Below the pieces are notes generated by a model, which saw only the letters and a list, made by a program, of their open reading frames with translations, had not been told where the DNA came from and searched no databases. Shown here one piece after another: positions 3,406 to 42,368 of a DNA stretch of 64,000 nt (within the stretch, counting starts at the first letter, position 1; each line of letters opens with the position of its first letter). The DNA comes from Escherichia phage vB_EcoM_AYO145A. The stretch is taken from the sequence record KR014248; one strand, 5' to 3'. Made by a program: the position numbers and the translations under genes.

Positions 3406-3416
3406 CAATGTATTAA

Positions 3417-3493
3417 GGTTAGGAAGCACATAAGGTATGTGCGGTCGCCTGTTAAGCGAATGGCACAGGGTTCGAATCCCTGACTAACCGCCA
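3417..3493 (+). tRNA. tRNA-Asn (anticodon GTT), CCA encoded
   Basis: Acceptor GGTTAGG/ACTAACC, anticodon loop CTGTTAA, T-arm CAGGGTTCGAATCCCTG. Confidence 0.75.
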
Positions 3494-3502
3494 AATTTAA
3501 AT

Positions 3503-3590
3503 GTGTCGTTATCCCGTAGATGGTAGCGGTGGGGACTGTAAATCCCTTGTCATTGAGACTCGGTAGGTTCGACTCCTACACGGCACACCA
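3503..3590 (+). tRNA. tRNA-Tyr (anticodon GTA), long variable arm, CCA encoded
   Basis: Acceptor GTGTCGT/ACGGCAC, anticodon stem GGGGA/TCCCT loop CTGTAAA, T-arm GTAGGTTCGACTCCTAC. Confidence 0.75.
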
Positions 3591-3596
3591 AATAAA

Positions 3597-3674
3597 GGTT
3601 ATGTAGTTTAATCTGGTTAAAATACTCCCCTGTCACGGGAGATGATGAGGGTTCAAATCCCTTCGTAACCGCCA
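3597..3674 (+). tRNA. tRNA-Asp (anticodon GTC), CCA encoded
   Basis: Acceptor GGTTATG/CGTAACC, anticodon stem CTCCC/GGGAG loop CTGTCAC, T-arm GAGGGTTCAAATCCCTT. Confidence 0.8.
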
Positions 3675-3761
3675 AATTATAATAAGTATTCCAAGATGAT
3701 GTTTTGAGAGGGCTATTTAGCCCCTCCCTTAAAGAGTTCTTACGAGTATTCTTTAAAGGAG

Positions 3762-3838
3762 CAGAAGACCAAATTCAGCAAGTACGTATGATATTTTCAA
3801 GCCAATTTAATTTTGAAAAAATTTAAAACTTGGTCTGG
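3762..3838 (+). ncRNA. stem-closed element U3 (CAGAAGACC ... GGTCTGG)
   Basis: Same conserved termini; extension AGACCAA/TTGGTCT. Confidence 0.4.
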
Positions 3839-3851
3839 CTCAACAAATTTA

Positions 3852-3983
3852 CAGAAGACCGTTTACAGCAAAACTTAAACAATCTATTTCTCCGGTAAAG
3901 AAAAGGCGAAGGTTCGATTCCTTCACTCGGCAGATGTCGAGTTGGTGTAATGGTAGCACTTAAGATGATAAACAACGGTCTGG
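3852..3983 (+). ncRNA. tRNA-mimic ncRNA (YrlA/Y RNA-like): closing helix CAGAAGACCGTT/AACGGTCTGG enclosing T-arm, hairpin-closed acceptor stem and D-arm
   Basis: Order 5'->3': T-arm GAAGGTTCGATTCCTTC (3908-3924), ACTCGGC-AGAT-GTCGAGT hairpin (3925-3942), D-arm GTGTAATGGTAGCAC (3945-3959); no anticodon arm; ends pair. Confidence 0.5.
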
Positions 3984-3985
3984 TA

Positions 3986-4126
3986 ATTATCTTTGTAGAT
4001 AAGTTATTAAGCTTACCTGTGAGTATGCGACCACAAAGGGTGAAAGGGTAAATTCTAGATTTAAACCCAACAAGGCACATCGCTACAGACCTTAAGCAAG
4101 TCTGGGTAGCTTATCTACAAAGATAA
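3986..4126. repeat. two inverted copies of 16-bp palindrome TTATCTTTGTAGATAA (3986-4001 and 4111-4126) flanking a mini CAGACC..GTCTGG hairpin (4082-4110)
   Basis: Exact reverse-complement copies read from sequence; half-site TTATCTACA resembles a DnaA-box-like 9-mer. Confidence 0.4.
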
Positions 4127-4133
4127 TTTTAAT

Positions 4134-4209
4134 GGAAGTGTAGCAGAATGGTGATGCGGCAGACTTTTAATCTGACAGGCGATGGGTTCGAATCCCTCCA
4201 CTTCTACCA
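4134..4209 (+). tRNA. tRNA-Lys (anticodon TTT), CCA encoded
   Basis: Acceptor GGAAGTG/CACTTCT, anticodon loop CTTTTAA, T-arm GGGTTCGAATCCC; paralogue of tRNA at 5366. Confidence 0.65.
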
Positions 4210-4213
4210 ATAT

Positions 4214-4290
4214 GGTTCAGTCGCAGATAAGGTAATGCAGGGGTCTCATAAGCCCTATGAATGTGGGTTCGATTCCCATCTGAACCTCCA
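4214..4290 (+). tRNA. tRNA-Met or Ile2 (anticodon CAT), CCA encoded
   Basis: Acceptor GGTTCAG/CTGAACC, anticodon stem GGGGT/GCCCT loop CTCATAA, T-arm GTGGGTTCGATTCCCAT. Confidence 0.75.
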
Positions 4291-4291
4291 A

Positions 4292-4367
4292 GCTGGTATA
4301 GTTAAGAAGGTTATAACACTCCCCTGATAAGGGAACATCGGTGGTTCGATTCCACCTACCAGTACCA
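4292..4367 (+). tRNA. tRNA-Ile (anticodon GAT), CCA encoded
   Basis: Acceptor GCTGGTA/TACCAGT, anticodon stem CTCCC/GGGAA loop CTGATAA, T-arm GGTGGTTCGATTCCACC. Confidence 0.75.
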
Positions 4368-4382
4368 ATTTCAATAAAGTTG

Positions 4383-4411
4383 TTGACATTGAGATGTGAC
4401 TACTTTATAGT
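4383..4411 (+). promoter_or_regulatory. sigma70-like promoter internal to tRNA array (TTGACA 4383-4388, 17-nt spacer, TATAGT 4406-4411)
   Basis: Near-consensus hexamers and spacing. Confidence 0.55.
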
Positions 4412-4615
4412 AACCTTAGTTTTCGTTGCGTAGCGTCTATTTTGCAAATTTAAAATAAATGCAAACGACAATGTTTTTCTGGCAGTAGCTTGATAGGCTA
4501 AACACCAGTGAGGTCTTCCAATCCCTCATCAAAGAATTTGGCGTACTCGCCCACGGTATGATTAATAAGGTGGGCATCTTTAAGGGCTTTCTAAGAGAGT
4601 CTTTAAAGATAATTA

Positions 4616-19652: not shown

Positions 19653-27668
<8,016 letters not shown>

Positions 27669-27670
27669 TA

Positions 27671-28843
27671 ATGGCAGTAGGTGAAATTCAAATTAGTGCC
27701 TTGCCTCAAGCAGCTTTACCAATTGACCTTAGTGATATCTTCCATCTTAAGCAGGGTATTGAGGATAAGAGATGCACTCTTGAGCAATTGCTTGCTCCAC
27801 ACTCAAGCCTAAGAAATAACCCTCATGGTGTTACTAAAACACAAATTGGTTTAGATAATGTTATTAATGCTCTTCAGTTAGTTGCTGCAAATAACTTATC
27901 AGATATTGTTAATGTAGCTGAGGCAAGAGCAAATCTACAGATTATGTCTTCCGAAGAGGTTAATAGTCTTGTTCAACAGCATATTAATGATAAGAGTAAT
28001 CCGCACAATACAACTAAGGCACAGGTAGGGTTGAGTAATGTCCAGAACTGGACAACATCTAACCTTTATAATGAAGATGCAGATAAGTATGCTACAGCGA
28101 GAGCAGTAAATAACTTGTACAAGGCTGTTCAGGCTTCCTATCCAGTAGGTACTATCCATCTTTCCATGAACTCTGCAAACCCTTCTACATATTTAATTTG
28201 TGGAGGAACTTGGGAGTTAGTTTCAAAAGGTAGGGCATTAGTTGGTTATGACTCTGACACAAGACCAGCAGGTTCTGTATTTGGTGCTTCAACTGTCACT
28301 TTATCAGTTAATAATATGCCTCAACACTCTCACTCTGTATCTCTTAGTGGTGGTGGTCATACCCATAATGCAACTGTGTCAATTTCAGCTTTTGACTATG
28401 GAACTAAGACTACCAACTCTTTTGACTATGGAACAAAGGGTACTAATACAACAGGTAACCATACGCACAACGTATCAGGTAACACAAGTACAAATGGTAC
28501 TCACAACCACGATGTGTACCCTAGAGAAAATGATGGTACTGGTAATGCTGTAGCTGACTCCGATGGTGGTGGTGCAAGAAGAACATCAAGGACATCGAGT
28601 GATGGTGCACACTCACATAGTTTTAATGTTACATCTGGTGCATCCGGTGACCACAGCCACACAGTCGGTATTGGTGCTCACAGCCACACAGTCGGTATTG
28701 GTTCACATACACACAGTGGTACTGTGACAGTTTCTTCTTCTGAGCATACACATAGTGGCAATACAAATAGTGTTGGTGGAGGTCAGGCGGTTAATATTGA
28801 ACAGCCATCCTTCGTACTGTATGTATGGCAGAGAACAGCTTAA
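27671..28843 (+). CDS. tail fibre protein with phage tail fibre repeats and C-terminal His-box (HxH) domain
   Basis: Repeated NPHxxTKxQxGLxNV motifs; C-terminus with many HTH/HSH/HNH triplets and tandem HSHTVGIG duplication. Confidence 0.7.
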
Positions 28844-28852
28844 TTTCTTTAC

Positions 28853-28874
28853 AGGGGCTATCAAGCCCCTTTTA
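28853..28874 (+). terminator. hairpin/terminator between the two tail fibre genes (AGGGGCT-ATCA-AGCCCCT + TTT)
   Basis: Perfect 7-bp stem read from sequence; short T tract. Confidence 0.4.
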
Positions 28875-28889
28875 AGAGGAAAATTTACA

Positions 28890-31253
28890 ATGGCAGATTA
28901 CAAGTTGAGTGAATTAAACTCAATCGATACAATCCGTTCAGATGACCTTCTTCATGTCAGAGTTAAAAAGAGACCTGAAATGCTGGGTGATGAAGACCGT
29001 CGAATGACCTATCAAGACTTCTTAGCATCTTTTAATCTTGAAAGATTTGTTCAGATTGCTGGTAGCACTATGACGGGTGACTTAGGGATTGTTAAGTTAC
29101 TTTATGGTGGTAAGGCAGTCTTTGACCCAACAGGCTCTTCTGAGATTAATATTGGGGATGTTTTAAAGACTTTTAAAATTAACTCAAACGGTCTTAGACT
29201 AACTATTGCAGATGCTTCAAGGTCAGCAACTGTTTATCATACCCTGAATAAACCAAGTCCTAATGAGCTTGGGATGAGAACTAATGAAGAGAATGATGCA
29301 AGATATGCAAGACTTGCTGTTACAAACTCATTCCAAGCTAAACAGAGTGTCGTAGCAAATGGCGAGCAGTTGACACTGAAGACCCCTGCTGGTGCAAGTG
29401 AGGCATACTCCGCTATTGTAGGTCGAAATGCCAATAATGATAAAACTTGGGCTGTTGGGAATCTAACTCAAGGAAGTCTTGATGTTCATCTCGAAAACAG
29501 CAGAGGTTCAAGAATCACTCTAGGTGCAATTGTGTCTGTTAATAAGGCTCTTGCTATTACTGGACAGGTTCAACCTTCTGACTTCTCTAACTTAGATGCT
29601 AGATATTTTACTCAGGCAGTTGCTAACCAGAGATTTGCACAGTTAGCTGCTAATAACACTTTTAGTGGTGCAAACACATTCACTAATTCCGTCAGTGTGA
29701 ACTCTGATGCTGCTGCTATCATTCTCAAAAATAAAACTGTTAATGATAATTTGTTCATCCTAGCAAGAGACAGTGAAAACAATAATTTGTGGTATATTGG
29801 TAAAGGTGATACAAACTCTAATGTCACATTATATGATTATAAGGGTGGTACTTCTATTAAATTAGACTCATCTGGTGTAACATTTAATAAGGTTGTAAAA
29901 ATCATTGGTCAAGTTCAACCTTCTGATTGGGCTAACATTGACTCTAGATACATTCCAGCAGCTACTTTGAATAATCTTGCTAAGATTAATGTATCTAATA
30001 CATTCACGAATACACAAACTATTGTTGCTAACAATGAAGGGTTGATTGTAAAGAATTTAACACAAAATCAGCCTTTGTATATCCGTGGTGTTGATACCAC
30101 AAACACCTCTAGATGGTGGATTGGTGTAGGAGGGAACAATTCTAACGTGGTTACTTGGAGCAACAGCTACTCTGGCACAGCAATTGCCCTTGAACAATCA
30201 GTAATTGTGGCTAACAAGAGTCTTGCTATCGCTGGTCAAGTTCAACCTTCTGACTTCTCTAACTTAGATGCTAGGTACTATACGCAATCTGTTGCGAACT
30301 CTAGGTACATGCTTGCAAGCCTCACTGGTTCAGCTTCTGAAAAGGATGGTGGGAATGGGGTTGCATGGAATGCTAGAACAGGGCTATACAATGTTACCAA
30401 CACTACTGGTGGAGCATCTTTTCTTGTATCTCATATGTTTTTAGGTGCTGGCTCTACACCATCTGCACAATTAAAATTTGAATACAGAAATGGTGGGATG
30501 TGGTATAGAACATCAAGAGATGCCTATGGCTTCGAAGTTAATTGGTCTAAGGTTTACACGGAAGCACAAAAACCAACCCCTTCAGATATTGGTGCATACA
30601 CTAAAGCTGAAACTGACCAGAAGATTGCACAGGCAGTAAGTGACTCTACAGACCTTAATAAAATCTATCCAGTAGGTATTGTAACGTGGTTTAACAGCAA
30701 CGTTAACCCTAATACAGCACTTCCTGGTCTAACTTGGACGTACCTGAATAATGGTGTTGGGAGAACTATTAGAATTGCAGCAGCAAATGGTTCAGATGTT
30801 GCTACAACTGGTGGTTCAGATTCTGTAACGTTAGCTGTTGGTAACTTACCATCACACACTCACAGCTTCTCTGCTACCACTTCATCTTTTGATTATGGTA
30901 CGAAGGGGACTAATAGTACTGGTGGTCACACTCACTCTGGTAGTGGTTCTACCAGCACAAATGGTGAGCACAGCCACTACATCGAGGCATGGAACGGGAC
31001 TGGTGCAGGTGGTAGTAAGATGTCATCGTATGCCGTAGCATATAGGGCGGGTGGGAGTAACACTAATGCAGCAGGAAACCACAGCCACACTTTCTCTTTC
31101 TCAACTAACAATACTGGCGCTCACACACACTCTGTAGGTATTGGTGCTCACAGCCACACAGTTAGTGGTAACACTGGTGGTACAGGCTCTGGTTCAGCAT
31201 TTAGTGTTACTAACCAGTTCTACAAATTAATGGCTTGGGTAAGAACTGCTTAA
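28890..31253 (+). CDS. large tail fibre protein with three internal repeats and the same C-terminal His-box domain
   Basis: Start at ATG 28890 with AGAGGA RBS (ORF track frame from 28755 overlaps upstream gene); repeat [15 protein letters not shown] x3; C-terminus paralogous to 27671-28843. Confidence 0.7.
29547..30274 (+). repeat. three intragenic direct repeats of about 50 nt within tail fibre gene (copies near 29547-29600, 29899-29950, 30219-30274)
   Basis: Near-identical DNA segments CAACCTTCTGACTTCTCTAACTTAGATGCTAG in copies 1 and 3. Confidence 0.7.
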
Positions 31254-31331: not shown

Positions 31332-31526
31332 ATGCCTACAATCCTAGCAATTCTTCTAAAAAATCTAGGTAGCTTCTTCTGGAAACTCATTTTATCCCTT
31401 CTAAGTGAATACATGATTGAGAAAGTGTTCTTTAGGCTTGCAAGATACCTTGCGAGTAAAACAGACACACCTATTGATGATGAGTTCGTAGATAACTTAG
31501 AAAAAGCTTTTAAGGGGGAGAAGTAA
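31332..31526 (+). CDS. small membrane protein (holin-like candidate)
   Basis: 64 aa with hydrophobic N-terminal segment, located after tail fibre genes. Confidence 0.3.
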   Translation: MPTILAILLKNLGSFFWKLILSLLSEYMIEKVFFRLARYLASKTDTPIDDEFVDNLEKAFKGEK

Positions 31527-31898
31527 ATGAAGTGGTTAGAGGAAGCTTTTAAAAATAATATTGGTGCAATTGTTGTTGGTATTTTTAGTGTTATTGGGAT
31601 GTATACCACTATGCAAGTTTCAAGTGGTAAGCAAGAAGTGTCTATCACAACAAAGTTACAACAGTTAGATAATTATTCCAAAAGTAATTATTCAGCTATT
31701 CGTGATTTACAGTCTGATATGAGGCTGCTTCAGCTAGGGATGGAGAACCAGAAAGTCCAGTTAGAGAATGTTAAGGGTGAGAACGCAAAACTTACTAAGA
31801 CTCTTGATAAGTTCTCTGATAGTGTGAACAATCTGGCTCAATCAGTATCAGCCCTCCAAGCTATTACTGAAAAGAACACAAAGAATACTGAAAAGTAA
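31527..31898 (+). CDS. membrane-anchored coiled-coil protein (spanin-like candidate)
   Basis: N-terminal TM helix followed by heptad-rich region. Confidence 0.3.
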   Translation: MKWLEEAFKNNIGAIVVGIFSVIGMYTTMQVSSGKQEVSITTKLQQLDNYSKSNYSAIRDLQSDMRLLQLGMENQKVQLENVKGENAKLTKTLDKFSDSVNNLAQSVSALQAITEKNTKNTEK

Positions 31899-31903: not shown

Positions 31904-31932
31904 AAGGCTCCTTTTTACGGGAGCCTTTTTTG
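31904..31932. terminator. hairpin terminator between convergent genes (GGCTCC-loop-GGGAGCC + TTTTTT)
   Basis: Stem and T-run read from sequence; sits between plus gene ending 31898 and minus gene ending 31935. Confidence 0.55.
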
Positions 31933-31934: not shown

Positions 31935-32834
31935 TTATTTACCTACTGACAAAGGTGCTTCAATCTTTCCTGCATGTTGATAGTTGCTAATACCACCGAT
32001 AAAGTCACTTGCAGTAAGATGTTTCAGGTCACTTAAAGTATTAAGTTGTAGACCAATCTCAAAAGTAGGTGCATGGAACTCTTCATTGCTCATCAGTTCA
32101 TAAACCTGCTTCATATGGTTCTGGTAAATCTGAGTATCCCCAAAGACACCTATCAAGTACCGTGGAGTGTATCCAGTCATCTTACAAAGAACTTCCAGAA
32201 TAAAACCATAAGACGCAATGTTAAAGGGAAGTCCTAAAAAGGTATCTACAGAACGCTGATACCATTGTAAGTCAACTTCACCCTCGTTAGTAATATAAAT
32301 CTGAAACAGAACATGACAAGGTGCTAGAGCCATTGAGTTTGCTGCAATATCTGCTGCATTCCAAGCATTAACAAGCATGTAACGGTCTGTAATATCACCC
32401 TTCATCTTCGTTACTAAGGTTTCTAACTGGTCTACAACACAACCATTATGACCTTCAAAGTTTCTCCACTGAACCCCATAGATTCTCCCACCTGCATCTT
32501 CTAACCAATCTTGTTCAGAAGAATAGTTAGAACTTAACCAGCGTTTAAAATCATCTGACCAGATAGTCCAACGTTCTCCGTCATTTTCACCCCAAGTGCG
32601 GTAACGGAGTTCACCAAGCTTATTCTCGCCATTCAGGAACCATAAAGCTTCCCCAATAACTTGCCGTGTAAACACCTGTTTAGATGTTAAAAGCGGGAAA
32701 CCAGTTCGCATATCAAAACGAAACTGAGGTGGAGCAAATGCAGAGATAACATCTCCAGTTCGTGTAGTACGCAGTTCACCAACTGATAAAACATGGTTCA
32801 GGATATTTTTGTAACTTGAATCTGCTTGTGACAT
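31935..32834 (-). CDS. thyA: thymidylate synthase
   Basis: Motifs APCHVLFQ (active-site Cys) and RIYGVQWR. Confidence 0.9.
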   Translation of the reverse strand: MSQADSSYKNILNHVLSVGELRTTRTGDVISAFAPPQFRFDMRTGFPLLTSKQVFTRQVIGEALWFLNGENKLGELRYRTWGENDGERWTIWSDDFKRWLSSNYSSEQDWLEDAGGRIYGVQWRNFEGHNGCVVDQLETLVTKMKGDITDRYMLVNAWNAADIAANSMALAPCHVLFQIYITNEGEVDLQWYQRSVDTFLGLPFNIASYGFILEVLCKMTGYTPRYLIGVFGDTQIYQNHMKQVYELMSNEEFHAPTFEIGLQLNTLSDLKHLTASDFIGGISNYQHAGKIEAPLSVGK

Positions 32835-32835
32835 A

Positions 32836-33381
32836 TCAAAAGTGTCCTTTTACTTGTGGAACATAAATTTCAAAAGTTGCTTTACCATCCTCTGATGGTT
32901 TTGACTGTACCTTTGTAAATACACGGTTATCATACAGCTTCTCAAAGAAGTTTTCAAAAGGTAAATGCACAGTGGCCTCTTCAGTAACTTTATGGAAAAC
33001 AGTATGGAACACCACACTAGCATACGGTAAAGCATCGACAAGGACACCTGCGCCACCAATTACAAAGACATCTTCATCAATAGAGCTATCAAGATACTTC
33101 AAAAATGCTCCAAAGGACTCTTTACTAGCTTTAGCAAACATAACATCATCTTTACCAAAGTCTATACCATAATAAGGTACAGAGTTTGTTAAGATGAGGT
33201 TTGCACGTTCTGGTAAAGGCTTACTCCCCAGAGTCTTGAAAGTCTCATTACCCATCACTACTAAGTTGTTTTTAGTGAGTCTCTTAAACTCTTGCATATC
33301 TTGCTTATGTCGAGGCCACGGCATACCAGTCGGTGTACCAAATTCACCGTTTTCACCACTTGCAAATATTAGTTTAATCAT
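32836..33381 (-). CDS. folA: dihydrofolate reductase
   Basis: N-terminal IFASGENGEFGTPTGMPWP and VVMGNETFKTLG motifs. Confidence 0.85.
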   Translation of the reverse strand: MIKLIFASGENGEFGTPTGMPWPRHKQDMQEFKRLTKNNLVVMGNETFKTLGSKPLPERANLILTNSVPYYGIDFGKDDVMFAKASKESFGAFLKYLDSSIDEDVFVIGGAGVLVDALPYASVVFHTVFHKVTEEATVHLPFENFFEKLYDNRVFTKVQSKPSEDGKATFEIYVPQVKGHF

Positions 33382-33638
33382 TTTGTAAACCCTTTCTTAA
33401 TGAACCAGTTGATGACACTCTTCACAACTTTACTACGATGGTAGATAAAATGTGGAGATGGTTGGTATGAACCATAAGCCCAGAAAGCGATAATTTCATT
33501 ACACCCTGTGCATCGGGTACTTTCTTCAGCAATATGACCGTTGACTATTTCACTTACCTCACCTTGTAAGTCTGTACACCCACAATGTGGACAACGGATA
33601 GGTGTTCCATCAGACTCATAGCAGTGTTCAATTTTCAT
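33378..33638 (-). CDS. zinc-ribbon protein (CxxC...CxxC)
   Basis: CPHCGC and CTGCN pairs. Confidence 0.5.
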   Translation of the reverse strand: MKIEHCYESDGTPIRCPHCGCTDLQGEVSEIVNGHIAEESTRCTGCNEIIAFWAYGSYQPSPHFIYHRSKVVKSVINWFIKKGFTK

Positions 33639-34154
33639 CTATTTAACCTCAAAAACTGGCTCAAGAACCAATATAAAGTCTACACAGTCATCTTCTTCAT
33701 CCAGAATACCATCAAAGTTCTTAGGAACAAAGTCGAAGAGGCTCATAACAAAACAGTCAGAAGTGACCTTGATAGTTCCTCCCATGTTCTCTACAGTTAA
33801 CACTGTACGACTTTCTTTTACCTCCCTCAGAAGATTACCCACAAAGTCATCTAAGAAGTACTTCATCAGTGACTTGAAACCTTTAGGGTAATCTGTACCA
33901 GAGTATGTTTCAATCTGAGGCACAAGCTTAACATTTATACTAGTCTTTGTTAAGAACGTGTTAGAGAACATGCTATCAGGTAGCTTACAAACAGTCTTTC
34001 CAGTACCTTCATGCTCAATCTCAACAAAACCAGCTTCGTCACCACATGTAACTATTTTAAAAGATGCTTCATTCTCATACTGTGAAGCCATAAACTTTTT
34101 AAGCATCTCTTTAAGGAAATCTGCATGAGCATCTTGTAAGTAGACATCAATCAT
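33639..34154 (-). CDS. hypothetical protein
   Basis: ORF track. Confidence 0.5.
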   Translation of the reverse strand: MIDVYLQDAHADFLKEMLKKFMASQYENEASFKIVTCGDEAGFVEIEHEGTGKTVCKLPDSMFSNTFLTKTSINVKLVPQIETYSGTDYPKGFKSLMKYFLDDFVGNLLREVKESRTVLTVENMGGTIKVTSDCFVMSLFDFVPKNFDGILDEEDDCVDFILVLEPVFEVK

Positions 34155-34167
34155 AGTTAATCACCTA

Positions 34168-34527
34168 TTATGGGAACAGACACTTAATGTCATCGTTTTT
34201 GAAGACAAAACTTGTGTAGTTGTGACCATCAACATCTAGCCAAACAGCCTGAACATCTACACCATCAAGATTCTGGTAAAGCTCTTTGATGAAGTGGTCT
34301 TTCACAATCTGGCTGCTAGTTGTCTCCAGCTTAATGTTCGAGATTGCTGAACCTACAGCCATATAACCCATGACACGTTTCTTCTCAGTATGCTTAATCT
34401 TACCATCTTTGTAAGCCATAATGAGATTGGAAAGAATCTTCACACCGTAGTACTTTTCAAGGTGAGTAGGTACACCATAAAATCCTAATGCGAAGTTTTC
34501 AGAGTGGATAATGTTTTCACGTTTCAT
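34168..34527 (-). CDS. hypothetical protein
   Basis: ORF track. Confidence 0.5.
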   Translation of the reverse strand: MKRENIIHSENFALGFYGVPTHLEKYYGVKILSNLIMAYKDGKIKHTEKKRVMGYMAVGSAISNIKLETTSSQIVKDHFIKELYQNLDGVDVQAVWLDVDGHNYTSFVFKNDDIKCLFP

Positions 34528-34528
34528 A

Positions 34529-34858
34529 TTAGTCTGCCAACCTTAAATTGAAATTAACACCAAATTTTTCACATACTTCCAACATAAACTCAAGAGAGAC
34601 ATTACCAGTGAGATTGATTATGTTGGATACACGAGCCTGAGATATACCACAAATTTTAGCAACTTGCTCTTGAGAAAGACCTCTGGATTTAATCTCTCTC
34701 TTAAAACGATGTGCAACGAAGTCTCTCATTTCGTCTACATCCATTGGACAAATATAACTCTCCATTTCAGCCTCTCTATCAGCCTCCCAATCATCTTGTG
34801 GGGCATAAGGGTCAAAAACCTCATTCATCTTTCTTCTTCCGTTTGCGTGAAGTGTCAA
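34529..34858 (-). CDS. helix-turn-helix (XRE-like) DNA-binding protein
   Basis: HTH segment LSQEQVAKICGISQARVSNI. Confidence 0.6.
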   Translation of the reverse strand: MTLHANGRRKMNEVFDPYAPQDDWEADREAEMESYICPMDVDEMRDFVAHRFKREIKSRGLSQEQVAKICGISQARVSNIINLTGNVSLEFMLEVCEKFGVNFNLRLAD

Positions 34859-35042
34859 TCAATGAATCTATGTTTGTAGCCCTAACCTTTTCACGTTCAT
34901 CGTTAAGATAATCATCAAGAGCCTTCTCAATCTGTGAATCATCTTGACAGATAACTGTAAAGACTGTAAAGCCGTCTGTATCGTCAATTATCTTACCATA
35001 ACCGCTTCTGGGATGTAACTTTTTAAGAGCCATATCAGACAC
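34821..35042 (-). CDS. hypothetical acidic protein
   Basis: ORF track. Confidence 0.4.
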   Translation of the reverse strand: MSDMALKKLHPRSGYGKIIDDTDGFTVFTVICQDDSQIEKALDDYLNDEREKVRATNIDSLIDTSRKRKKKDE

Positions 35043-35418
35043 CTGTGCAGCTTCTGTTTTCTAAGAAATACTCAACACCGTACATAGCTTTTTGCATCAA
35101 ATCTTCTTTAAACTGGATACGGTGGTTGAGCATAGCCTGTACATCAATATCATCACGGTGTTTCTCTTTAATATTTGCAGATTGCAGGAAATACTCTGCA
35201 AGAACGCGATACTGATAGTCAGTTACCTTATCAGTCATCTCTGTCAAAGACTCTTCAGAGATTGGTTTAAGTAACTCACCATTAGCTAGAGCAACACCTT
35301 TAACAATCTGGCAAGTGTCTTCTGGAACACCTGATAAGTCCACATTTGGAAGTTCTGTTGCATTGACTGGTAAATTCATTGCCATAACCATTGCAGAAGC
35401 TAATAAAATCTTTTTCAT
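35035..35418 (-). CDS. secreted/periplasmic protein (signal peptide)
   Basis: N-terminus MKKILLASAMVMAMNLPVNA signal-peptide-like. Confidence 0.5.
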   Translation of the reverse strand: MKKILLASAMVMAMNLPVNATELPNVDLSGVPEDTCQIVKGVALANGELLKPISEESLTEMTDKVTDYQYRVLAEYFLQSANIKEKHRDDIDVQAMLNHRIQFKEDLMQKAMYGVEYFLENRSCTGV

Positions 35419-35520
35419 AATGACCTCAAAGTTATATTAAATTTTGTATTACATTGAGTATAAAAATAAGCTATAACACCTGACTTGTCAACAGATTTTA
35501 TAGCTTATTTGGCAGATTTT

Positions 35521-35770
35521 TTATAAGGCTACTGCCATCCTTCCATACCTTACCTTACCACACCTAACCATACCTAACCAAACTACACCATACAATACCT
35601 TGTTAAAAGACCCTTTTAAAGACCTTTTAAAAAGGTAAGTCTCATTTTAATGTAGTTGAGACTAGCTACCCATACTTTACCTTACCATACCAGACCTCAC
35701 CCCGCCTTACCGCACCAGACAGCACAATGCAGTACAGTACCTTATTAAAAGACCCTGTTTAAAGACATTT
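35521..35770. repeat. intergenic repeat region A: G-free ACC-rich iteron-like tracts plus conserved palindromic box (homologous to 36884-37215)
   Basis: Tracts 35530-35600 and 35666-35735 lack G on plus strand; box AAAGACCTTTTAAAAAGGTAAGTCTCATTTTAATGTAGTTGAGACT shared with second region. Confidence 0.7.
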
Positions 35771-35794
35771 TAAAAAGGAGCCTCCGAAGAGGCT
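35770..35794 (-). terminator. rho-independent terminator on minus strand (AGCCTC-UUCG-GAGGCT + U-run)
   Basis: Minus-strand hairpin with tetraloop followed by CCTTTTTAA, immediately after minus gene ending at 35806. Confidence 0.5.
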
Positions 35795-35805
35795 ACCTAG
35801 TCAAC

Positions 35806-36246
35806 TTAGAAAGGTTTTCTACGTTGCTTGTTAATATTAGCTTTCATAGCAGCTAAATGGTTTTGCTGTTCAATTAGTCGTGAACGTTCTTGATGACTAA
35901 GTGCCATAGTGTTCACATTCTCAATTGCTTGAGTGGCTTGCTTTAAAGCGCGACCAATCTTACCAGACATTTTACGTTTTGCAATAGTTGCTTGATGCTT
36001 AGGTTCGACAACACGATAACCAACACCCATTGAAGCAACCAGATAAATCTTCTCTTCTTTAAGAAGCTTCTCAATAAACTTCTCAAGTCGATTTAAGCGT
36101 GTAAGTGCGTAAGCTTTCATTTCATCTTCGTACTTAACAATGTCACCTTGATAAGTTGGCTTCACAATACCTAAGAAGGTATCCATCTCAGAGTGTGATA
36201 CAGTGTCACCGTAACTAAACTTTGCTGCTAATGCTTTTGTATTCAT
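35806..36246 (-). CDS. hypothetical protein
   Basis: ORF track. Confidence 0.5.
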   Translation of the reverse strand: MNTKALAAKFSYGDTVSHSEMDTFLGIVKPTYQGDIVKYEDEMKAYALTRLNRLEKFIEKLLKEEKIYLVASMGVGYRVVEPKHQATIAKRKMSGKIGRALKQATQAIENVNTMALSHQERSRLIEQQNHLAAMKANINKQRRKPF

Positions 36247-36248
36247 AA

Positions 36249-36854
<606 letters not shown>

Positions 36855-36883
36855 TTAGTTGATTGTTAAGTTGTTTGTAAAGA

Positions 36884-37215
36884 ACCCTCAACAGAAGACT
36901 CTTTAGAAACTTGGTAGATTTTTAACGTGGCTACTACCATCCACCCATACCATACCGAGCCTTACCTTACCAAACCAGACCGCGCCTTACCAAACCAGAC
37001 CAAACATTACTTTACCCTACCTCATTAAAAAACCCTCTTAAAGACCTTTTAAAAAGGTAAGTCTCATTTTAATGTAGTTGAGACTAACTACCCATACCGA
37101 ACCTCACCGCACCATACTACACCTGACACCACCTTACACCACCTTACACCACCGCACCATACCTGACCGAGCTACACATCACTTAAAAACCCTCTTAGAA
37201 GACTCTTAAGTGATG
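36884..37215. repeat. intergenic repeat region B: ACC-rich direct-repeat tracts (CACCTTACAC x2 etc.) plus same palindromic box
   Basis: Box at 37024-37090 near-identical to 35603-35665; tandem CACCTTACACCACCTTACACC at 37128-37150. Confidence 0.7.
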
Positions 37216-37280
37216 CTGGTGAGTACCCGTTGGTTTATGCTGCTCAGTATACTCACCAAATTTTCTATGTCAACAACTTT

Positions 37281-38381
37281 TTACTCATAATCCCTAATAA
37301 CTAACCCAACAGGGAACTGTAAAGACCCCTTACGAGTCATCTTCTGGAACTGAACCGTTAAAGGCTTCCCGATAAACTCTTCAGGATGCTCAGCCAGATA
37401 CTGCTTTTTCTCATGAGTGGTTTTCCATGAGACATCTACAAAGACGTTAGGAAGAGTCTCTACAACGAACTTACCATGACCACGTTTATCAGTCTTTACA
37501 CCAGTTACTTTAAACTCTTCAGTGTGCATCTTCTTGTGCTTAATCAAGAAGTATGAACGGTGACAACACTCGTAGAAGGAGTCTTCAGAGATTGAACGGT
37601 ACATTGCACCTTCAAACTTAGCTTCAACCCACTTATCATGAGCTTCATCAAACTCTTCCCAAGAATTTACACGGATAGTCTGCACAGGAACAACTCTACA
37701 GGTATCCCCAAGCTCAACAATAGGTGAGTTATCAATAACTTCACGACGCTCAGGCCAAGATTTTGAATTGTCGCAGATATCATACCAGTAGAATTTAAGA
37801 AGGTGACGGTCTGGATTGTCAGCATTCTTAATCATAGATACAATATCTTCTAAGTCCCAACCATGAGCATAAATCTCACCATCAAAGTCTTCAACTTGTG
37901 GATGTAATTTAAGCAACAAAAGCAAATCTGGAATTAGTTCTGCTGGAACGTTGTAAACAGTATTCTCACGAGAATAAGCCGTAAAACTAACTAAATCAGC
38001 ATCTCTTGAAATCCTACAACGGACACCATCAAGTTTTGGTTGAGCATCAGCAGGGAACTTCAGATACTTTGCATGGCTAACCTTTGCAGCATCATGAGCA
38101 AGCTGTACACCTACCTTCTCAGTATTCTGTGCAGACTCTTTTGTGTAAGCATAACCTTTGCGGTCTACTTGCTTTTTATACTTAGCAGCAACTTCAAAGA
38201 GAGCTTGTTGTTCAGCGTTACGCTCATTCTTTTTACCGATGTTTTTAGGCTCTGCTGTGTACTCTTCAAACATCATCTTGCCATTTTCTTTACCGTAGGT
38301 TGTAATAACTTTGTCACCTACAGCAACACATGACCAGACGTTGAAGGAACCATCTTTATTTTGTTTGTACAGAATTGTCAT
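37281..38381 (-). CDS. ATP-dependent DNA ligase
   Basis: Adenylation motif KLDGVRC; start taken at MTILYKQ directly after upstream gene stop (ORF track frame extends to 38417). Confidence 0.8.
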   Translation of the reverse strand: MTILYKQNKDGSFNVWSCVAVGDKVITTYGKENGKMMFEEYTAEPKNIGKKNERNAEQQALFEVAAKYKKQVDRKGYAYTKESAQNTEKVGVQLAHDAAKVSHAKYLKFPADAQPKLDGVRCRISRDADLVSFTAYSRENTVYNVPAELIPDLLLLLKLHPQVEDFDGEIYAHGWDLEDIVSMIKNADNPDRHLLKFYWYDICDNSKSWPERREVIDNSPIVELGDTCRVVPVQTIRVNSWEEFDEAHDKWVEAKFEGAMYRSISEDSFYECCHRSYFLIKHKKMHTEEFKVTGVKTDKRGHGKFVVETLPNVFVDVSWKTTHEKKQYLAEHPEEFIGKPLTVQFQKMTRKGSLQFPVGLVIRDYE

Positions 38382-38382
38382 T

Positions 38383-38574
38383 TTATTCCTCTGAATGATA
38401 CCAAGTATTGCAAGCATTACATGCGTAAAGCTCTAAGTCATTTTTATCTGGTTTATGAAAGCAGTTTGCTCCGCAGTGGCAACGGAATGGCTTTCCACCA
38501 ACTGTCAGGGTGAATGATTGAATCTTCCCATCAGGAGTTCGTACAGCATTTTTATGCTTATCTTCTTTGTTCAT
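38383..38574 (-). CDS. small zinc-finger protein
   Basis: CHCGANC...CNACN. Confidence 0.45.
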   Translation of the reverse strand: MNKEDKHKNAVRTPDGKIQSFTLTVGGKPFRCHCGANCFHKPDKNDLELYACNACNTWYHSEE

Positions 38575-38792
38575 TTTCTCTTACCACCAATCTCTACGTC
38601 AATCACTTGAACATCACCAGCAACATCAAACTTATGAATGATGCTTTCCACAGTGTAAGTCCAACCCTCAATGCGAACCAATTCACCTTCTCGCGGTACG
38701 ATTGGGTTACGTTGAGCTATGGTTGTAGTGGAGTGAACAGTATCATAACGGTAGATATAGTTTACTAAGACTTGCATCTTGAAAAACCTCAC
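38571..38792 (-). CDS. hypothetical protein
   Basis: ORF track. Confidence 0.45.
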   Translation of the reverse strand: MRFFKMQVLVNYIYRYDTVHSTTTIAQRNPIVPREGELVRIEGWTYTVESIIHKFDVAGDVQVIDVEIGGKRK

Positions 38793-39025
38793 TCAATAAC
38801 AGTAGTGTGTGATTGACTATTTTTACCATAACGATAAGATGTTGTCGTTTGAGAGTTTGGACATCTTACAACAACAATATCTGTGCTTATTGCATCCTCA
38901 TTCAGCTTATAGACTTTACAATCTTGCATCTCTGGTGGGAGACTATAAGAAGCATTTTTATCTTCATAAGAAGGGTTGCAGCCAGATAGAAAAATAACAC
39001 CAAGCACAATTACTGATTTCCACAT
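38789..39025 (-). CDS. putative lipoprotein
   Basis: Signal peptide with lipobox LSGC. Confidence 0.45.
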   Translation of the reverse strand: MWKSVIVLGVIFLSGCNPSYEDKNASYSLPPEMQDCKVYKLNEDAISTDIVVVRCPNSQTTTSYRYGKNSQSHTTVIE

Positions 39026-39182
39026 AATACTTCTCCTGTCTGTTGTTCACGATACTCAAGCTCTCTGAAAGTTTTGTAGTAATGAATTTTGTAGTACGCT
39101 ATCTCATTACTTTTTACATTTGTTTTGAGCAGATTCCAGTCAGAATCTTTACCCATCCTTCCCCAGAGACTATATAACTTAT

Positions 39183-39416
39183 TCATAACAATTCCAAGAT
39201 ATCAATACGTTCACCCTTAAGAACACCTGTACGGTCTTTTGCAATCTTACCTTCAACAATAAGAATGTGTGCAGACCTTAAAGTGTCACTGTTAAAGGCT
39301 TTTACGAACTTGCTAGGCATCACTACAATACACATCTCCTGAATCAACTCTGGGGTATAGCAGTTGTCGTGAAGTTGCTGAATAACGTCTGCAAGTGTCA
39401 TTTTTGATGTCTCCAA
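39183..39416 (-). CDS. hypothetical protein
   Basis: ORF track. Confidence 0.45.
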   Translation of the reverse strand: METSKMTLADVIQQLHDNCYTPELIQEMCIVVMPSKFVKAFNSDTLRSAHILIVEGKIAKDRTGVLKGERIDILELL

Positions 39417-39607
39417 TACTCAATGTCAATAAGTTCTTGTGCAATGCTTTTCAGATTACCTTTCAAGAAAACCTTCTCAGAACCTGAAAGAGATGAGTTG
39501 TCAATTAACCTGTTCATTCTCTCAAACAACTTCTGCTTACGATTTTTGATAGTCTCCTTTGAAGCACCTTTCATCATCGCTGCATGGGTTCTTCCACGGT
39601 GGCTCAT
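39398..39607 (-). CDS. hypothetical protein
   Basis: ORF track. Confidence 0.4.
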   Translation of the reverse strand: MSHRGRTHAAMMKGASKETIKNRKQKLFERMNRLIDNSSLSGSEKVFLKGNLKSIAQELIDIEYWRHQK

Positions 39608-39668
39608 AAGCCCTCCTATATAAGATATAGTATAAGGTACTCTTCCATGAGCACCCTGTCAACACTAA

Positions 39669-42368
39669 TTAGTGAACCTCAAGCCAGCTTTTACCAACCT
39701 TACCAGTACCTGTAACAAGCGTTTCTTTCTTAAGACCTAAGTTCTTAGAAGCTTGTCCATAATACCAGTCAGTAACTGCTTTCACTTCTGCCGTCATACT
39801 TTCTGGACATTCCCAACTCGTCTCGTCGTGATATGCGCAGAGTAAACGAGCACCAATAGCTGGTTTGCGACCATTCAACTTCATCAAGCCTTCGTCAATC
39901 ATACGACGACAAGCAAGGTTAATCGCCTCATTTTGAATCTGAGCCTCCGAACCCATGAGCAAATAATTCAATAACTTGTGTGGAGATTTACACCACAACC
40001 AAGCTCCAGCAACCTTTACAAAACCCCCTTTAGAGATTGCAGCGGTCTTACCAAACACCTCTTCAAGTGCCTTTTTAGTTGCTTTGTAGTCAGCTTCCAA
40101 GTTATCTAATAGTTTCTTAATCTTTGGCAAACGCACAAAGTAAGTCTGTTTAGTTAATGCACCTTCCTGAGTAGTGGCTGCCTTAATAGTTTTAGCAAAC
40201 TTCTCATCACCTGCACCAAACAGTAGTGCATAGATACCATTCTTAGCTTTCTTACGACCTTTGCTAATCTCATGAAGAAGATTCTCATCCTGAGTAGCTC
40301 GACAAGTCAAGATATCCTGCTCATCATTCAAGCTAAAGTAAATACTGTTCAGTGTGTGTGCATCAGTCCCTGAATAGACAACGTAAAGGTCATTCTCAGA
40401 GTCATAGCGAAGGTACTTATCAATCTCTGGATTGAGGTACTCATCAAAGTGTTTGCAGTAATAACGTCCGTCTTCTTGACGAATAAATTCAATCTCTTCT
40501 TTACCTTGCGTTACCGCTTTGGTGAAGTCTTTATCACCCATAAAGTTACAAAGAAGAACTAGCTGAGCTGAGTTCATATCTACAGAGACAACGTTAGTAC
40601 CTTCCTCACAAATCCACACTGCCCTCATTGGTTCCCCATAGACAGCAGCACCAGACGGTACGTTTACAATACCATATTGTGTCATACGTCCAGTTGAAGT
40701 ACCAAACACCATTGCACCAGCACTAAGGCGACCATCAGGACGAATCTGGTTCAACCAACCTTTTTCATCATCCTTTGAGTTCTCAATAGTTCTGCGTCTG
40801 TGCATCAAAGTGTAGTATTTCGCAATCTTCTGTCCAAGCTCACCTTCAATCGTATCATAAGATGATTCAGTAAGTTTTGGTGAAGTACGGATTAAGCAAG
40901 GCTCAAGCAAATCTGTGTACTTTTTCACAGACCAGTTATGCTCAATGTACTGGACACCTTCATGTTCAACATAACTCAAACCACACCGTTCAACCATCTC
41001 CTGCCACTTAGGATGCTTGGTAATCATCTTTTTGTTGTCTTTGAAACGACAAACCTTAACAGGACGACCATCTGAGTCTTTCTTGTAGTTCCAGTCATCT
41101 GGAATCCAACCAACTGATTTCAAGTAGTCTTTAACAACTGCTACCTGAGTCATACGAGAAACTTCGAACTCAATTGGTGTATATGGTGCATCAATCAAAC
41201 CTGTGTAGCGACTTGACTCAAGTTCAAAGTGGTTAACAACATGACTGTTATAGTACTTCACAGTCTTAACTGTTTTTACTGGCTTCCAGTCTTTGCATTT
41301 CTTACCAATCTTTGCATTCAACTCATTGCAAATTGCACGAGCATCCTTCATTGCTACAAAGCCTTCCTTGTACTCTTCACCAGTCACAGAGTTGGTTGGC
41401 GTATAGCAATTTCTCTTTTCAATGTTAAAAATCTTTGTAGTTGGCTTACCAAATGGTTTTATTTCATAAGTCTGCATCTCGCCATTACGTACCTGCTGAC
41501 GATACTTTGTCTTAGGGTACTTGGTAATTCTCTTCAGTCCATCTGCATGACCAAACGCTTCAACATACTCATTCCAAGCTTTTGCAAATTCTTCTCCAGT
41601 GACTTTACCTTTGGTCTTAATAGTTGGTGGAAGGTGTGGTTCAACTTCTGAAGCAAGCTCATTAGTCAACTTGTCAAGTTCCTTTACATGGAACTCCATA
41701 AGTTCTTTATCAGCTTTCCAACCATTGATAGCTTGTTGACTCATCCAGAAAGATGTTTCTTTAGCTCGCATGTAGGTTTCATAAGTATCTACGCCACACT
41801 TCTTCAGCTTCAGATATTCATTATCCAATGCACGTTTAGTTTTGGCGTTGATACGGATATCTTCCACAACACGAGTAAAGATTTCTGCATTCCACACACC
41901 CCAATGTTCAATCTCTGGTTTACGGACACCAACACGAGCACCCCATGCTGCCAAGCCATGAGCACCTTTATAGCCTTTTGGAGTTGGTCTATCCATCCAC
42001 TGAACACGAGACTGGATAAGAGAATCCTGAAAGAAATTACTCCACGGCTTACACTTTGGATTATCAAAGTTCCACAAATCAGGTGCAATGTGATTGAAAA
42101 CCCACCAGTCATAACCGAGACCATTATGGATGCAAAGACGTTTTGCCTTTAACGCAAATTCAACACCTTCACGTAAGCCGCCCTTAATGTACTTGGTATA
42201 CTTATGACCGAGAATAGGTTCATCTGTAAAGACCCATACAGGTGGCTCTTCATCGTCAGATTTATAGTCTGCGAAAGCCATTACGTGCACTTTAGTGAAC
42301 TCAAGGAGTAAACCATCAGTTTCTGTATCACCAACTAAATGTAAGTTTTTAAAATCTACGTTTTCCAT
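39669..42368 (-). CDS. DNA polymerase, family A, with 3'-5' exonuclease domain
   Basis: Exo I motif DTETDGL, motif B-like KNGIYALLFGAG, motif C CAYHDE; start at MENVDF with AGGGAG RBS. Confidence 0.85.
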   Translation of the reverse strand: MENVDFKNLHLVGDTETDGLLLEFTKVHVMAFADYKSDDEEPPVWVFTDEPILGHKYTKYIKGGLREGVEFALKAKRLCIHNGLGYDWWVFNHIAPDLWNFDNPKCKPWSNFFQDSLIQSRVQWMDRPTPKGYKGAHGLAAWGARVGVRKPEIEHWGVWNAEIFTRVVEDIRINAKTKRALDNEYLKLKKCGVDTYETYMRAKETSFWMSQQAINGWKADKELMEFHVKELDKLTNELASEVEPHLPPTIKTKGKVTGEEFAKAWNEYVEAFGHADGLKRITKYPKTKYRQQVRNGEMQTYEIKPFGKPTTKIFNIEKRNCYTPTNSVTGEEYKEGFVAMKDARAICNELNAKIGKKCKDWKPVKTVKTVKYYNSHVVNHFELESSRYTGLIDAPYTPIEFEVSRMTQVAVVKDYLKSVGWIPDDWNYKKDSDGRPVKVCRFKDNKKMITKHPKWQEMVERCGLSYVEHEGVQYIEHNWSVKKYTDLLEPCLIRTSPKLTESSYDTIEGELGQKIAKYYTLMHRRRTIENSKDDEKGWLNQIRPDGRLSAGAMVFGTSTGRMTQYGIVNVPSGAAVYGEPMRAVWICEEGTNVVSVDMNSAQLVLLCNFMGDKDFTKAVTQGKEEIEFIRQEDGRYYCKHFDEYLNPEIDKYLRYDSENDLYVVYSGTDAHTLNSIYFSLNDEQDILTCRATQDENLLHEISKGRKKAKNGIYALLFGAGDEKFAKTIKAATTQEGALTKQTYFVRLPKIKKLLDNLEADYKATKKALEEVFGKTAAISKGGFVKVAGAWLWCKSPHKLLNYLLMGSEAQIQNEAINLACRRMIDEGLMKLNGRKPAIGARLLCAYHDETSWECPESMTAEVKAVTDWYYGQASKNLGLKKETLVTGTGKVGKSWLEVH

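Follow-up and report, generated by a model that had tools for sequence, protein, structure and literature searches.

The region 27671-31253 of vB_EcoM_AYO145A is the pair of short and long tail fibre genes of this Felixounavirus, both of which have been described before. The two proteins very probably constitute a pair of trimeric fibres, one short and one long, each tipped by a module of the T4 gp37 type, with rod modules and heads that are exchanged at conserved junctions. The domain swapping for which the first-pass annotation saw substrates in these features is supported by a comparison of fibre sequences across phages, which brought out a T4-like cassette, at least seven head types within one conserved needle scaffold, mosaic borders in the rod and the sharing of a cassette between paralogous fibre genes.

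The fibre gene pair and its setting

The top DNA matches are Felixounavirus genomes, among which ~260 fibre loci were found. The gene order wedge 2, wedge 1, platform, short fibre and long fibre is that of Bas63 gp23-27, and the synteny of the fibre locus was also seen with L27, VpaE1, REP12, C600M2 and UAB_Phi87. The genes concerned are:

27366..27668, + strand: gene of a 100-aa product, relevant to fibre attachment as the orthologue of gp25, the long-fibre platform of Bas63
27671..28843, + strand: short tail fibre gene (ORF, 390 aa), orthologue of Bas63 gp26 and VpaE1 gp74
28890..31253, + strand: long tail fibre gene (787 aa), orthologue of Bas63 gp27 and VpaE1 gp75

The 100-aa protein matches bas63_0025 in length and position and belongs to PHROG 4141 (E = 5e-62); the platform role of its orthologue derives from the cryo-EM of Bas63 (PMC12609058). 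The short fibre matches the full-length profile of PHROG 2097 (tail fibre; E = 6e-138) and is 97-98% identical at the amino acid level to its counterparts in VpaE1 and REP12 and 76% identical to Bas63 gp26. The long fibre matches PHROG 4277 over its full length (1345 bits; 1-787 of 780) and is identical to the AYO145A tail fibre protein (100% identity, 100% coverage). Its mechanically called ORF opens at GTG 28755; the true start is almost certainly ATG 28890 (MADYKLSE...), in view of AAGAGGAAA, with the ribosome-binding site, just upstream and the agreement with the annotated starts in relatives. Both ORFs lie on the + strand at the coordinates of the first-pass annotation, and all the peptides that it quoted, including the ends VWQRTA and AWVRTA, are present in the translations.

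The folding of T4 gp37 requires gp38 and gp57A. A gp38 homologue is absent from the 64-kb window (tblastn; a chance match only, E = 0.85), which sets AYO145A apart from T4 and means that assembly must differ in some respect; a gp36 homologue was likewise not found in the window. The two small genes downstream of the long fibre were considered as assembly chaperones and rejected on present evidence: their PHROGs are families of unknown function, accompanied by a faint spanin-like match and by no tail or assembly-chaperone match, and the counterparts of the pair carry a holin annotation in SUSP1 and Mordin.

The histidine-rich tips

The homology of both C-terminal modules to the receptor-binding tip of T4 gp37 (PDB 2XGF; homology test region gp37 residues 785-1026) supports the view that both fibres end in a histidine-rich tip of this type. 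In phmmer searches of the PDB the short fibre matched 2XGF at E = 1.4e-29 (aa 146-362 on 2XGF residues 18-228) and the long fibre at E = 1.5e-49 (aa 654-766), and cryo-EM reveals that both orthologous fibres of Bas63 have a collar, a needle with HxH motifs and a head (PMC12609058), in agreement with the receptor-tip reading of the earlier annotation. Taken over both fibres, the Pfam families matched are Gp10_C, Phage_fiber, gp37_trimer (three times) and gp37_C. The paralogy of the two C-terminal modules, also claimed there, is evident from BLASTP (38% identity over 240 aa, E = 3e-30), as is their richness in HxH triplets from a shuffling test: the short fibre carries nine (at aa 219, 230, 264, 278, 314, 328, 337, 346 and 359) and the long fibre six, against averages of 1.4 and 0.3 after shuffling, and in 20,000 shuffles the observed counts were never reached. 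The triplets are divided over an ascending and a descending series, as 4 + 5 in the short fibre and 3 + 3 in the long fibre, compared with 3 + 4 in T4. Six HxH are found in 117 of 120 homologues of the long fibre and nine in 51 of 76 homologues of the short fibre, where the number ranges from 5 to 11 among distant relatives and the spacing is kept among close ones.

The features of the short fibre are:

27818..28042, + strand: N-terminal motif NPHxxTKxQxGLxNV, present twice in the shaft (aa 50-64 and 110-124; regular expression on the translation)
28130..28459, + strand: collar and first part of the needle (Pfam Gp10_C, PF21939, E = 1e-18, aa 154-263)
28325..28753, + strand: needle with nine HxH (from the HxH positions and the alignment to 2XGF)
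28511..28609, + strand: variable head (tip) cassette, the predicted receptor-contact region (largest gap between HxH motifs)
28652..28721, + strand: 27-nt tandem array, 2.7 copies, 89% matches (TRF, period 27)

At the head cassette, DNA identity drops to 10-50% relative to phages with other heads. The 27-nt array, in line with the tandem HSHTVGIG duplications noted before, codes for HxHTVGIGx units of 9 aa on the descending strand of the needle; two neighbouring copies are almost identical, and the same 9-aa periodicity occurs in T4 gp37.

The tip region of the long fibre comprises:

30354..30650, + strand: gp37_C domain, related to phage Mu tail fibre S (PF12604, E = 4e-22; PDB 8JU3, E = 5e-24)
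30657..31046, + strand: collar and ascending needle (Pfam Gp10_C, PF21939, E = 2e-6 on a sub-segment; aa 590-719)
30876..31162, + strand: T4 gene 37-like cassette, consisting of the FDYGTK box, His boxes, head and descending His boxes (87% nucleotide identity over 287 nt to T4 gene 37 nt 2692-2978)
30978..31079, + strand: head (tip) of the T4 type (from a head-type comparison with relatives and the match to T4 residues)

The protein encoded by the T4-like cassette (long fibre aa 663-758) is identical to residues 898-993 of wild-type gp37 at 85 of 96 positions (88.5%), and a comparison of 95 codons with T4 gene 37 gives 67 identical codons, 16 synonymous differences and 12 amino acid changes. 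Its borders are sharp, with in-register flanks only 37% and 25% identical. When the long fibre is compared with the Felixounavirus phages Bas63, C600M2 and UAB_Phi87, which have other head types, the identity is mostly 67-100% up to 30947, 24-71% at 30948-31136 and at least 90% from 31137. The functional residues of the T4 tip have been mapped (PMC6957217), and all those that are null as single Ala substitutions in that study, as well as W936, are kept in the long fibre, which is identical to T4 (offset 235) at H929, H931, I933, W936, N937, G938, G940, G942, G943, S947 and Y949; of the OmpC patch, K945 and Y953 are retained, with V in place of I951. The short fibre head is unrelated, and the essential T4 residues are not conserved in it.

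The fold assignment relies on sequence homology and on the published cryo-EM of the orthologue, and not on modelling, because the confidence of the needle and head models is low and Foldseek gave no significant PDB match. The AlphaFold2 monomer of the short fibre (57-sequence alignment) has a mean pLDDT of 65.5, with the collar as its best part (~87-90), the needle at 50-60 and the head below 50; for the C-terminal 307 aa of the long fibre (46-sequence alignment) the mean is 54.4 and only the gp37_C domain is confident. The needle pLDDT of 40-60 across the two monomer models is as expected for an intertwined trimer. The low-confidence short fibre monomer model retrieved nothing from the PDB at E <= 0.001 with Foldseek.

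By analogy with T4 and Bas63, the short fibre would belong to the 430 A class and the long fibre to the 630 A class, both presumably as trimers. An intertwined homotrimer with octahedral metal sites along its three-fold axis, which would be the arrangement of the T4 type, receives indirect support from the cryo-EM of the Bas63 orthologues. Each tip would consist of a collar and a six-stranded needle, in which every chain ascends to a small head and returns, each level carrying one HxH per chain. The T4 needle holds seven iron ions coordinated by HxH motifs (PMC6957217), and by homology each level in AYO145A may form a six-histidine metal (iron) site, which predicts nine sites in the short fibre and six in the long fibre; metal binding by the AYO145A tips is thus proposed from the T4 case. 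The head, situated between the ascending and descending His boxes, would make the receptor contact. Since the two heads differ, the phage probably reads two receptors; for the long fibre, the prediction from its T4-type head is a glucose of the LPS core and possibly OmpC. These candidate receptors follow from the resemblance to T4, and a simple T4-like OmpC or rough-LPS receptor fits uneasily with the isolation of AYO145A on O145 strains with O-antigen (PMC4472883).

Probable exchange of rod modules and heads

The rod of the long fibre contains three modules of ~95 aa:

29367..29633, + strand: rod module 1 (Pfam gp37_trimer, PF20744, E = 2e-17), ending in linker copy 1 (29540-29627)
29718..29975, + strand: rod module 2 (PF20744, E = 2e-16), ending in linker copy 2 (29885-29972)
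30036..30317, + strand: rod module 3 (PF20744, E = 5e-31), ending in linker copy 3 (30212-30299)

The nucleotide repeats (family D1, spaced 345 and 327 nt) code for the conserved linkers NKxLxIxGQVQPSDxxNxDxRY that close these modules. Three internal repeats do exist, as the first-pass annotation had it, and copies 1 and 3 agree at 46 of 50 positions in the best 50-nt window, including an exact run of 35 nt; the description of all three as near-identical was overstated, copy 2 matching the other two at only 38 and 39 of 50 positions. Conservation islands sit at the three linkers and the borders of mosaic blocks in the rod coincide with them. The nearest relative along the rod is REP12 up to ~29600 and then L27 for 29618-29975, a block that is 95-100% identical to L27 and has both flanks closest to other phages. 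Such patterns support a view of the rod repeats as conserved junctions at which phages exchange modules. No change in repeat copy number was seen among the relatives examined.

The same type of exchange may extend to the two fibres of a single phage. In L012, another Felixounavirus genome, the short and long fibre have a cassette in common that is 100% identical over 282 nt (on one contig) and has the same borders as the T4-like segment, and cassettes are similarly shared in UAB_Phi87 (91% over 200 nt), L027 (81%) and L028 (79.5%). Within AYO145A itself, the DNA similarity between the short and long fibre genes is limited to patches (39 nt at 82% and 41 nt at 88%), and with only these ~40-nt patches in common no recent exchange between the two is visible, so that short-long exchange is deduced here from the relatives. 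The stretch from FDYGTK to GIGAHxHTV (~285 nt) might constitute a self-contained, portable cassette that moves across Straboviridae and Ounavirinae and between paralogous fibres, and that folds without gp38, a proposal to which we give slightly less than an even chance. Mechanistically, the conserved linkers and the flanks formed by the His boxes and FDYGTK would serve as junctions for homologous recombination, at which rod modules and head cassettes would be traded from phage to phage, across families with T4-like phages, and from paralogue to paralogue in one genome.

One might argue that nothing more than ancient paralogy and structural constraint is involved, in the sense that the repeats and His boxes are needed by the fold, have no part in recombination, and that the mosaic merely reflects uneven selection and divergence. 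The protein identity of just 38% between the AYO145A fibres, the confinement of their DNA similarity to short patches and the near-invariant HxH count of the long fibre are all in line with that view, but uneven divergence fails to account for 282 nt at 100% between the L012 paralogues, for an 87% segment in common with T4, a member of another family, while the flanks are at background identity, and for the 360-nt rod block that so closely matches L27 between flanks of other affinity. We therefore consider this view unlikely. Exchange of modules and heads at conserved junctions remains our preferred reading of the locus.

A different role for the intragenic repeats, namely slippage or unequal crossing-over, would make variation in fibre length (the number of rod modules or the length of the needle) the main route to a new host range. 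The three repeats at ~330 nt with their 35-nt exact run, the two adjoining and nearly identical 27-nt needle units and the variable HxH number among distant short-fibre relatives could be read that way. Yet the long fibre measures 781-797 aa in most of the closest 120 homologues, with a PF20744 match in every one listed; the variants of ~845 aa have a module replaced instead of a repeat added; the paper on Bas63 describes sequence variation and not a variable repeat number (PMC12609058); and close relatives of the short fibre keep the HxH spacing. This route is very improbable, and copy-number variation of the rod repeats as the main mechanism was rejected, given the near-constant length of the long fibre in those homologues. 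Least probable of all, and hardly credible, is that the 390-aa protein, instead of being a receptor-binding fibre, is part of the baseplate structure in the manner of T4 gp10, its HxH region being no more than a structural spine. Gp10_C is indeed its sole Pfam match and the top, weak fold matches of its model are gp10-type collars, i.e. C-terminal domains of gp10, but the Gp10_C match spans the collar only, the rest aligns to the needle and head of gp37, the head region is hypervariable between phages, and in the cryo-EM of Bas63, gp26 is a fibre of 430 A whose tip resembles that of gp37 (PMC12609058).

Comparison with known fibre systems

With the T4 gp37 tip the AYO145A fibres have in common the FDYGTK box, the 9-aa HxHxVxIGx units, the W/V-R-x-A C-terminus and the up-and-back topology implied by the order of the HxH motifs. 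They differ from it in the number of HxH (seven in T4 versus nine and six), in the sequence of the short fibre head, which is unrelated to the T4 head, and in overall construction, i.e. fibres of 390 and 787 aa directly on a Mu-like baseplate, whereas T4 has a four-protein fibre of 145 nm. In the His-box-mediated swapping of adhesins among T-even phages, conserved motifs coding for GxHxH reportedly flank the variable adhesin segments and coincide with the borders of recombination (Tetart et al., 1998, J Mol Biol). The AYO145A cassette is likewise bordered by FDYGTK/GxHTH upstream and GIGAHxHTV downstream, but the exchange here crosses Straboviridae and Ounavirinae and, in some genomes, takes place between two paralogous fibre genes.

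The closest systems are the orthologous pairs Bas63 gp26/gp27, VpaE1 gp74/gp75 and Sf14 gp52/gp53, which show identical synteny, with 76-98% identity for the short and 68-85% for the long fibre. For these pairs it has been published that both fibres have a gp37-like tip with HxH motifs, that the rods are made of repeated beta-helix domains and helix-turn linkers, and that the N and C termini are conserved and the middle varies (PMC12609058, PMC4690856, PMC11821841). The Bas63 short fibre has seven HxH against nine in AYO145A, its long fibre head is unrelated (SWIGQNSTHYSGGGGG...) to the T4-type head of AYO145A, and the rod of AYO145A is another patchwork of modules than that of its Felixounavirus relatives.

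The gp37-like tips of both fibres were thus already known (VpaE1 in 2015, Bas63 by cryo-EM in 2025), and the AYO145A locus illustrates them with good documentation but brings no new principle; only the cross-family cassette and the sharing of cassettes between paralogues may merit a brief systematic study. The fibre pair is the main host-range determinant of Felix O1-like phages, which are used in the typing and biocontrol of Salmonella and STEC, and gp37-type needles with exchangeable heads and known cassette borders could aid the prediction of receptors from sequence and the design of fibre swaps. Should the portable cassette be real, AYO145A would carry a tip of T4 specificity on a non-T4 fibre, and the borders would provide a ready rule to re-target either fibre. 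Three of the observations made here go beyond the first-pass annotation: the T4 gene 37-like segment, the differing heads in a constant scaffold, and the cassette common to the short and long fibre in relatives.

The tail fibre locus

The short fibre gene (gene A) and the long fibre gene (gene B) are separated by 46 nt and contain the following features:

27671-28843, plus strand: short fibre, ORF of 390 aa
28130-28459, plus strand: Gp10_C collar of the short fibre (Pfam)
28511-28609, plus strand: short-fibre head (DVYPRENDG...), unrelated to the T4-type head
28890-31253, plus strand: long fibre, ORF of 787 aa from its ATG start
29367-29633, 29718-29975, 30036-30317, plus strand: gp37_trimer modules of the long fibre, i.e. 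its rod (Pfam)
30354-30650, plus strand: gp37_C domain of the long fibre (Pfam; also Mu fibre S, PDB 8JU3, E 5e-24)
30657-31046, plus strand: Gp10_C collar of the long fibre (Pfam)
within the long fibre, plus strand: Phage_fiber His repeat (Pfam)

The mechanical ORF call started gene B at GTG 28755; the true start is almost certainly ATG 28890 (MADYKLSE...). This codon follows AAGAGGAAA, and the annotations of all relatives use the same start. The short fibre gene is preceded by genes for a 489-aa Baseplate_J protein, a 285-aa baseplate protein and a 100-aa protein, and the gene order is exactly that of Bas63 gp23 (wedge 2), gp24 (wedge 1), gp25 (long-fibre platform), gp26 (short fibre) and gp27 (long fibre). 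Felixounavirus genomes are the top DNA matches of the region, and the long fibre is 100% identical to the vB_EcoM_AYO145A tail fibre protein, so that the DNA belongs to this phage or to one almost identical to it. The genome announcement of AYO145A treated the neighbouring pair of fibre genes as one of its main variable regions and distinguished, within the long fibre, four similar regions with dissimilar ones in between (PMC4472883).

A gp37-type tip in both fibres

The first-pass annotation had proposed that both fibres end in a paralogous module rich in HxH triplets. The peptide strings it quoted are all found in the translations, the C-terminal modules are indeed homologous (BLASTP, 38% identity over 240 aa, E 3e-30), and HxH occurs nine times in the short and six times in the long fibre, counts reached in 0 of 20,000 shuffles (means 1.4 and 0.3). 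The motifs are ordered as four ascending and five descending in the short fibre and as three and three in the long fibre; the count is conserved at six in 117 of 120 long-fibre homologues and at nine in 51 of 76 short-fibre homologues. The proposed tandem duplication corresponds to a 27-nt array (2.7 copies, 89% matches, 28652-28721) that encodes HSHTVGIG units, two adjacent units being nearly identical in DNA. T4 gp37 has three copies of the 9-aa HxHxVxIGx unit as well, which makes this unit an ancient structural period of the needle's descending strand. The N-terminal half of the short fibre carries a different motif, NPHxxTKxQxGLxNV, twice (27818-27862 and 27998-28042, 60 aa apart), in a stretch matched by many PHROG tail-protein families.

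A sequence search related both proteins to the receptor-binding tip of T4 gp37 (PDB entry 2XGF), i.e. aa 146-362 of the short fibre (E 1.4e-29) and aa 654-766 of the long fibre (E 1.5e-49), and sequence and motif architecture place both in the gp37-tip family, as do the essential residues in the case of the long fibre. A homologue of gp38, the adjacent chaperone, was not found in the window, and the two genes 3' of the long fibre lack tail or assembly-chaperone matches in PHROGs. Monomer AlphaFold2 models of the fibres had low confidence in the needle and the head, and a Foldseek search of PDB with the short-fibre model gave no significant match. Each chain of T4 gp37 leaves the collar, ascends the needle into a small head and then descends again; the needle holds seven iron ions along its length, each bound by HxH histidines of three chains, and LPS and OmpC are contacted by the surface of the head (PMC6957217; PMC12609058). 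In the Felixounavirus Bas63, cryo-EM revealed this collar-needle-head architecture in the short as well as the long fibre (PMC12609058), and both fibres of VpaE1 were reported in 2015 to be homologous to gp37 (PMC4690856). By homology to T4, nine metal sites would be predicted in the short fibre (4 + 5 HxH) and six in the long fibre (3 + 3). Three known systems come closest: the T4 gp37 tip, the published fibre pairs of Felixounavirus (Bas63, VpaE1, Sf14) and the His-box recombination model of T-even adhesins, reportedly put forward by Tetart et al. in 1998. What was noticed in these fibres has already been described for Felixounavirus and for AYO145A itself.

A minority of the long fibres (L012 5223-7754 and proteins P0193, P0196, P0208, P0214 and P0226) is ~845 aa long and lacks the Pfam gp37_C domain, whose place between rod and collar seems to be taken by a different module.

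Exchange of head cassettes

The long-fibre tip contains a cassette (30876-31162) that is 87% identical at the DNA level to nt 2692-2978 of T4 gene 37, with only 37% and 25% identity in the flanks when kept in register. Codon by codon, 67 of 95 are identical, 16 carry synonymous differences and 12 encode another amino acid. The encoded protein matches wild-type gp37 at 85 of 96 positions (residues 898-993) and keeps W936 and all residues at which a single alanine change is null in T4 (H929, H931, I933, N937, G938, G940, G942, G943, S947 and Y949; PMC6957217); within the OmpC patch, K945 and Y953 are unchanged and valine replaces I951. The cassette thus stems from horizontal exchange between phage families rather than from convergence. 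The wild-type residues were taken from the 2XGF sequence because gene 37 of the deposited T4 mutant, clone T4_583L (L001, MZ375356), differs from it in the tip (N937S, I951V, Y953H), in or near receptor-contact patches.

With such a cassette the long fibre would be expected to use a receptor like that of T4, which sits uneasily with the isolation of AYO145A on O145 strains (PMC4472883). Since the short-fibre head is unrelated to this T4-type head, the phage likely has two receptor specificities. A ~87% identical copy of the long-fibre 3' end is also listed in Staphylococcus phage SA1 (GU169904.1, 86014-86558), and two 'Campylobacter' phage records match as well; these records are probably chimeric or contaminated.

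The proposal that the fibres are substrates for domain swapping gains support from the fibre alleles of relatives. Sliding comparisons with eight relatives show both genes to be mosaic. Against Felixounavirus phages with other heads (Bas63, C600M2, UAB_Phi87), the long-fibre tip is mostly 67-100% identical up to 30947, 24-71% at 30948-31136 and >=90% from 31137. The 120 closest long-fibre homologues carry at least seven unrelated head types in one scaffold, short-fibre heads are similarly diverse, and the same types occur on either fibre (e.g. the T4-type head on the short fibre in homologues P0010 and P0016). The two fibres of a genome share one cassette in several cases:

Table. DNA stretches shared by the short and long fibre genes of one genome (locus; identity; length)
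L012 (metagenomic contig); 100%; 282 nt
UAB_Phi87 (L007 = L031); 91%; 200 nt
L027; 81%; 195 nt
L028; 79.5%; 205 nt

The borders of these stretches are those of the T4-like segment, i.e. FDYGTK upstream and GIGAHSHTV downstream. In the window the two genes are similar in DNA only at these borders (28418-28456 with 30885-30923; 28652-28692 with 31122-31162), and no recent exchange between this genome's own fibre genes was seen. The sharing of cassettes with defined borders, across families and between paralogues, is the only part that might merit a short systematic study.

In Escherichia phage EC6 (L008, NC_027369; 2197-4567) the annotation of the long fibre consists of two overlapping CDS (2197-3822, 3788-4567), and an intact long ORF was found neither there nor in L024; the cause is a frameshift or an error in sequencing, unless the long fibre is truncated or split in nature.

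Rod repeats and flanking sequences

The finding of the first-pass annotation is real and was correctly interpreted, except that the near-identity of its three 50-nt repeats was overstated. Three direct repeats exist (29540-29627, 29885-29972 and 30212-30299), of which copies 1 and 3 agree at 46/50 positions over their best-matching 50 nt, including 35 nt without a mismatch, and copy 2 at only 38-39/50. In each case the repeat codes for the conserved stretch with which a rod module ends (NKxLxIxGQVQPSDxxNxDxRY); judged by position, this stretch seems to correspond to the helix-and-turn linker that joins beta-helix domains in the rod of Bas63 (PMC12609058). In the sliding comparison with eight relatives the conservation islands of the rod fall at the repeats, and the nearest relative switches there: up to about 29554 REP12 matches at 95-100%, and from 29618 to 29975 L27 does. 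Unequal crossing-over within the gene was rejected as the main route, since long-fibre length is nearly constant among homologues.

The gap between the fibre genes holds a small G+C-rich hairpin (28854-28873, GGGGCT-atca-AGCCCC, then TTTT) directly 5' of the long-fibre ribosome-binding site; not called by the consensus scan, it is possibly a weak terminator or attenuator, through which the proportion of short to long fibre could be set. The long fibre gene is followed by two small genes (31332-31898; 64 and 123 aa) and a strong terminator-like hairpin (31904-31927). Their counterparts in SUSP1 and Mordin are annotated as holin, and a homologue of the 64-aa protein has a Pfam PM2 GpI-like match. 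GC skew is negative at ~32-42 kb and positive elsewhere in the window; the negative stretch (~32000-42000) coincides with a minus-strand gene block (thymidylate synthase, DHFR and others) right after the fibre and lysis genes.
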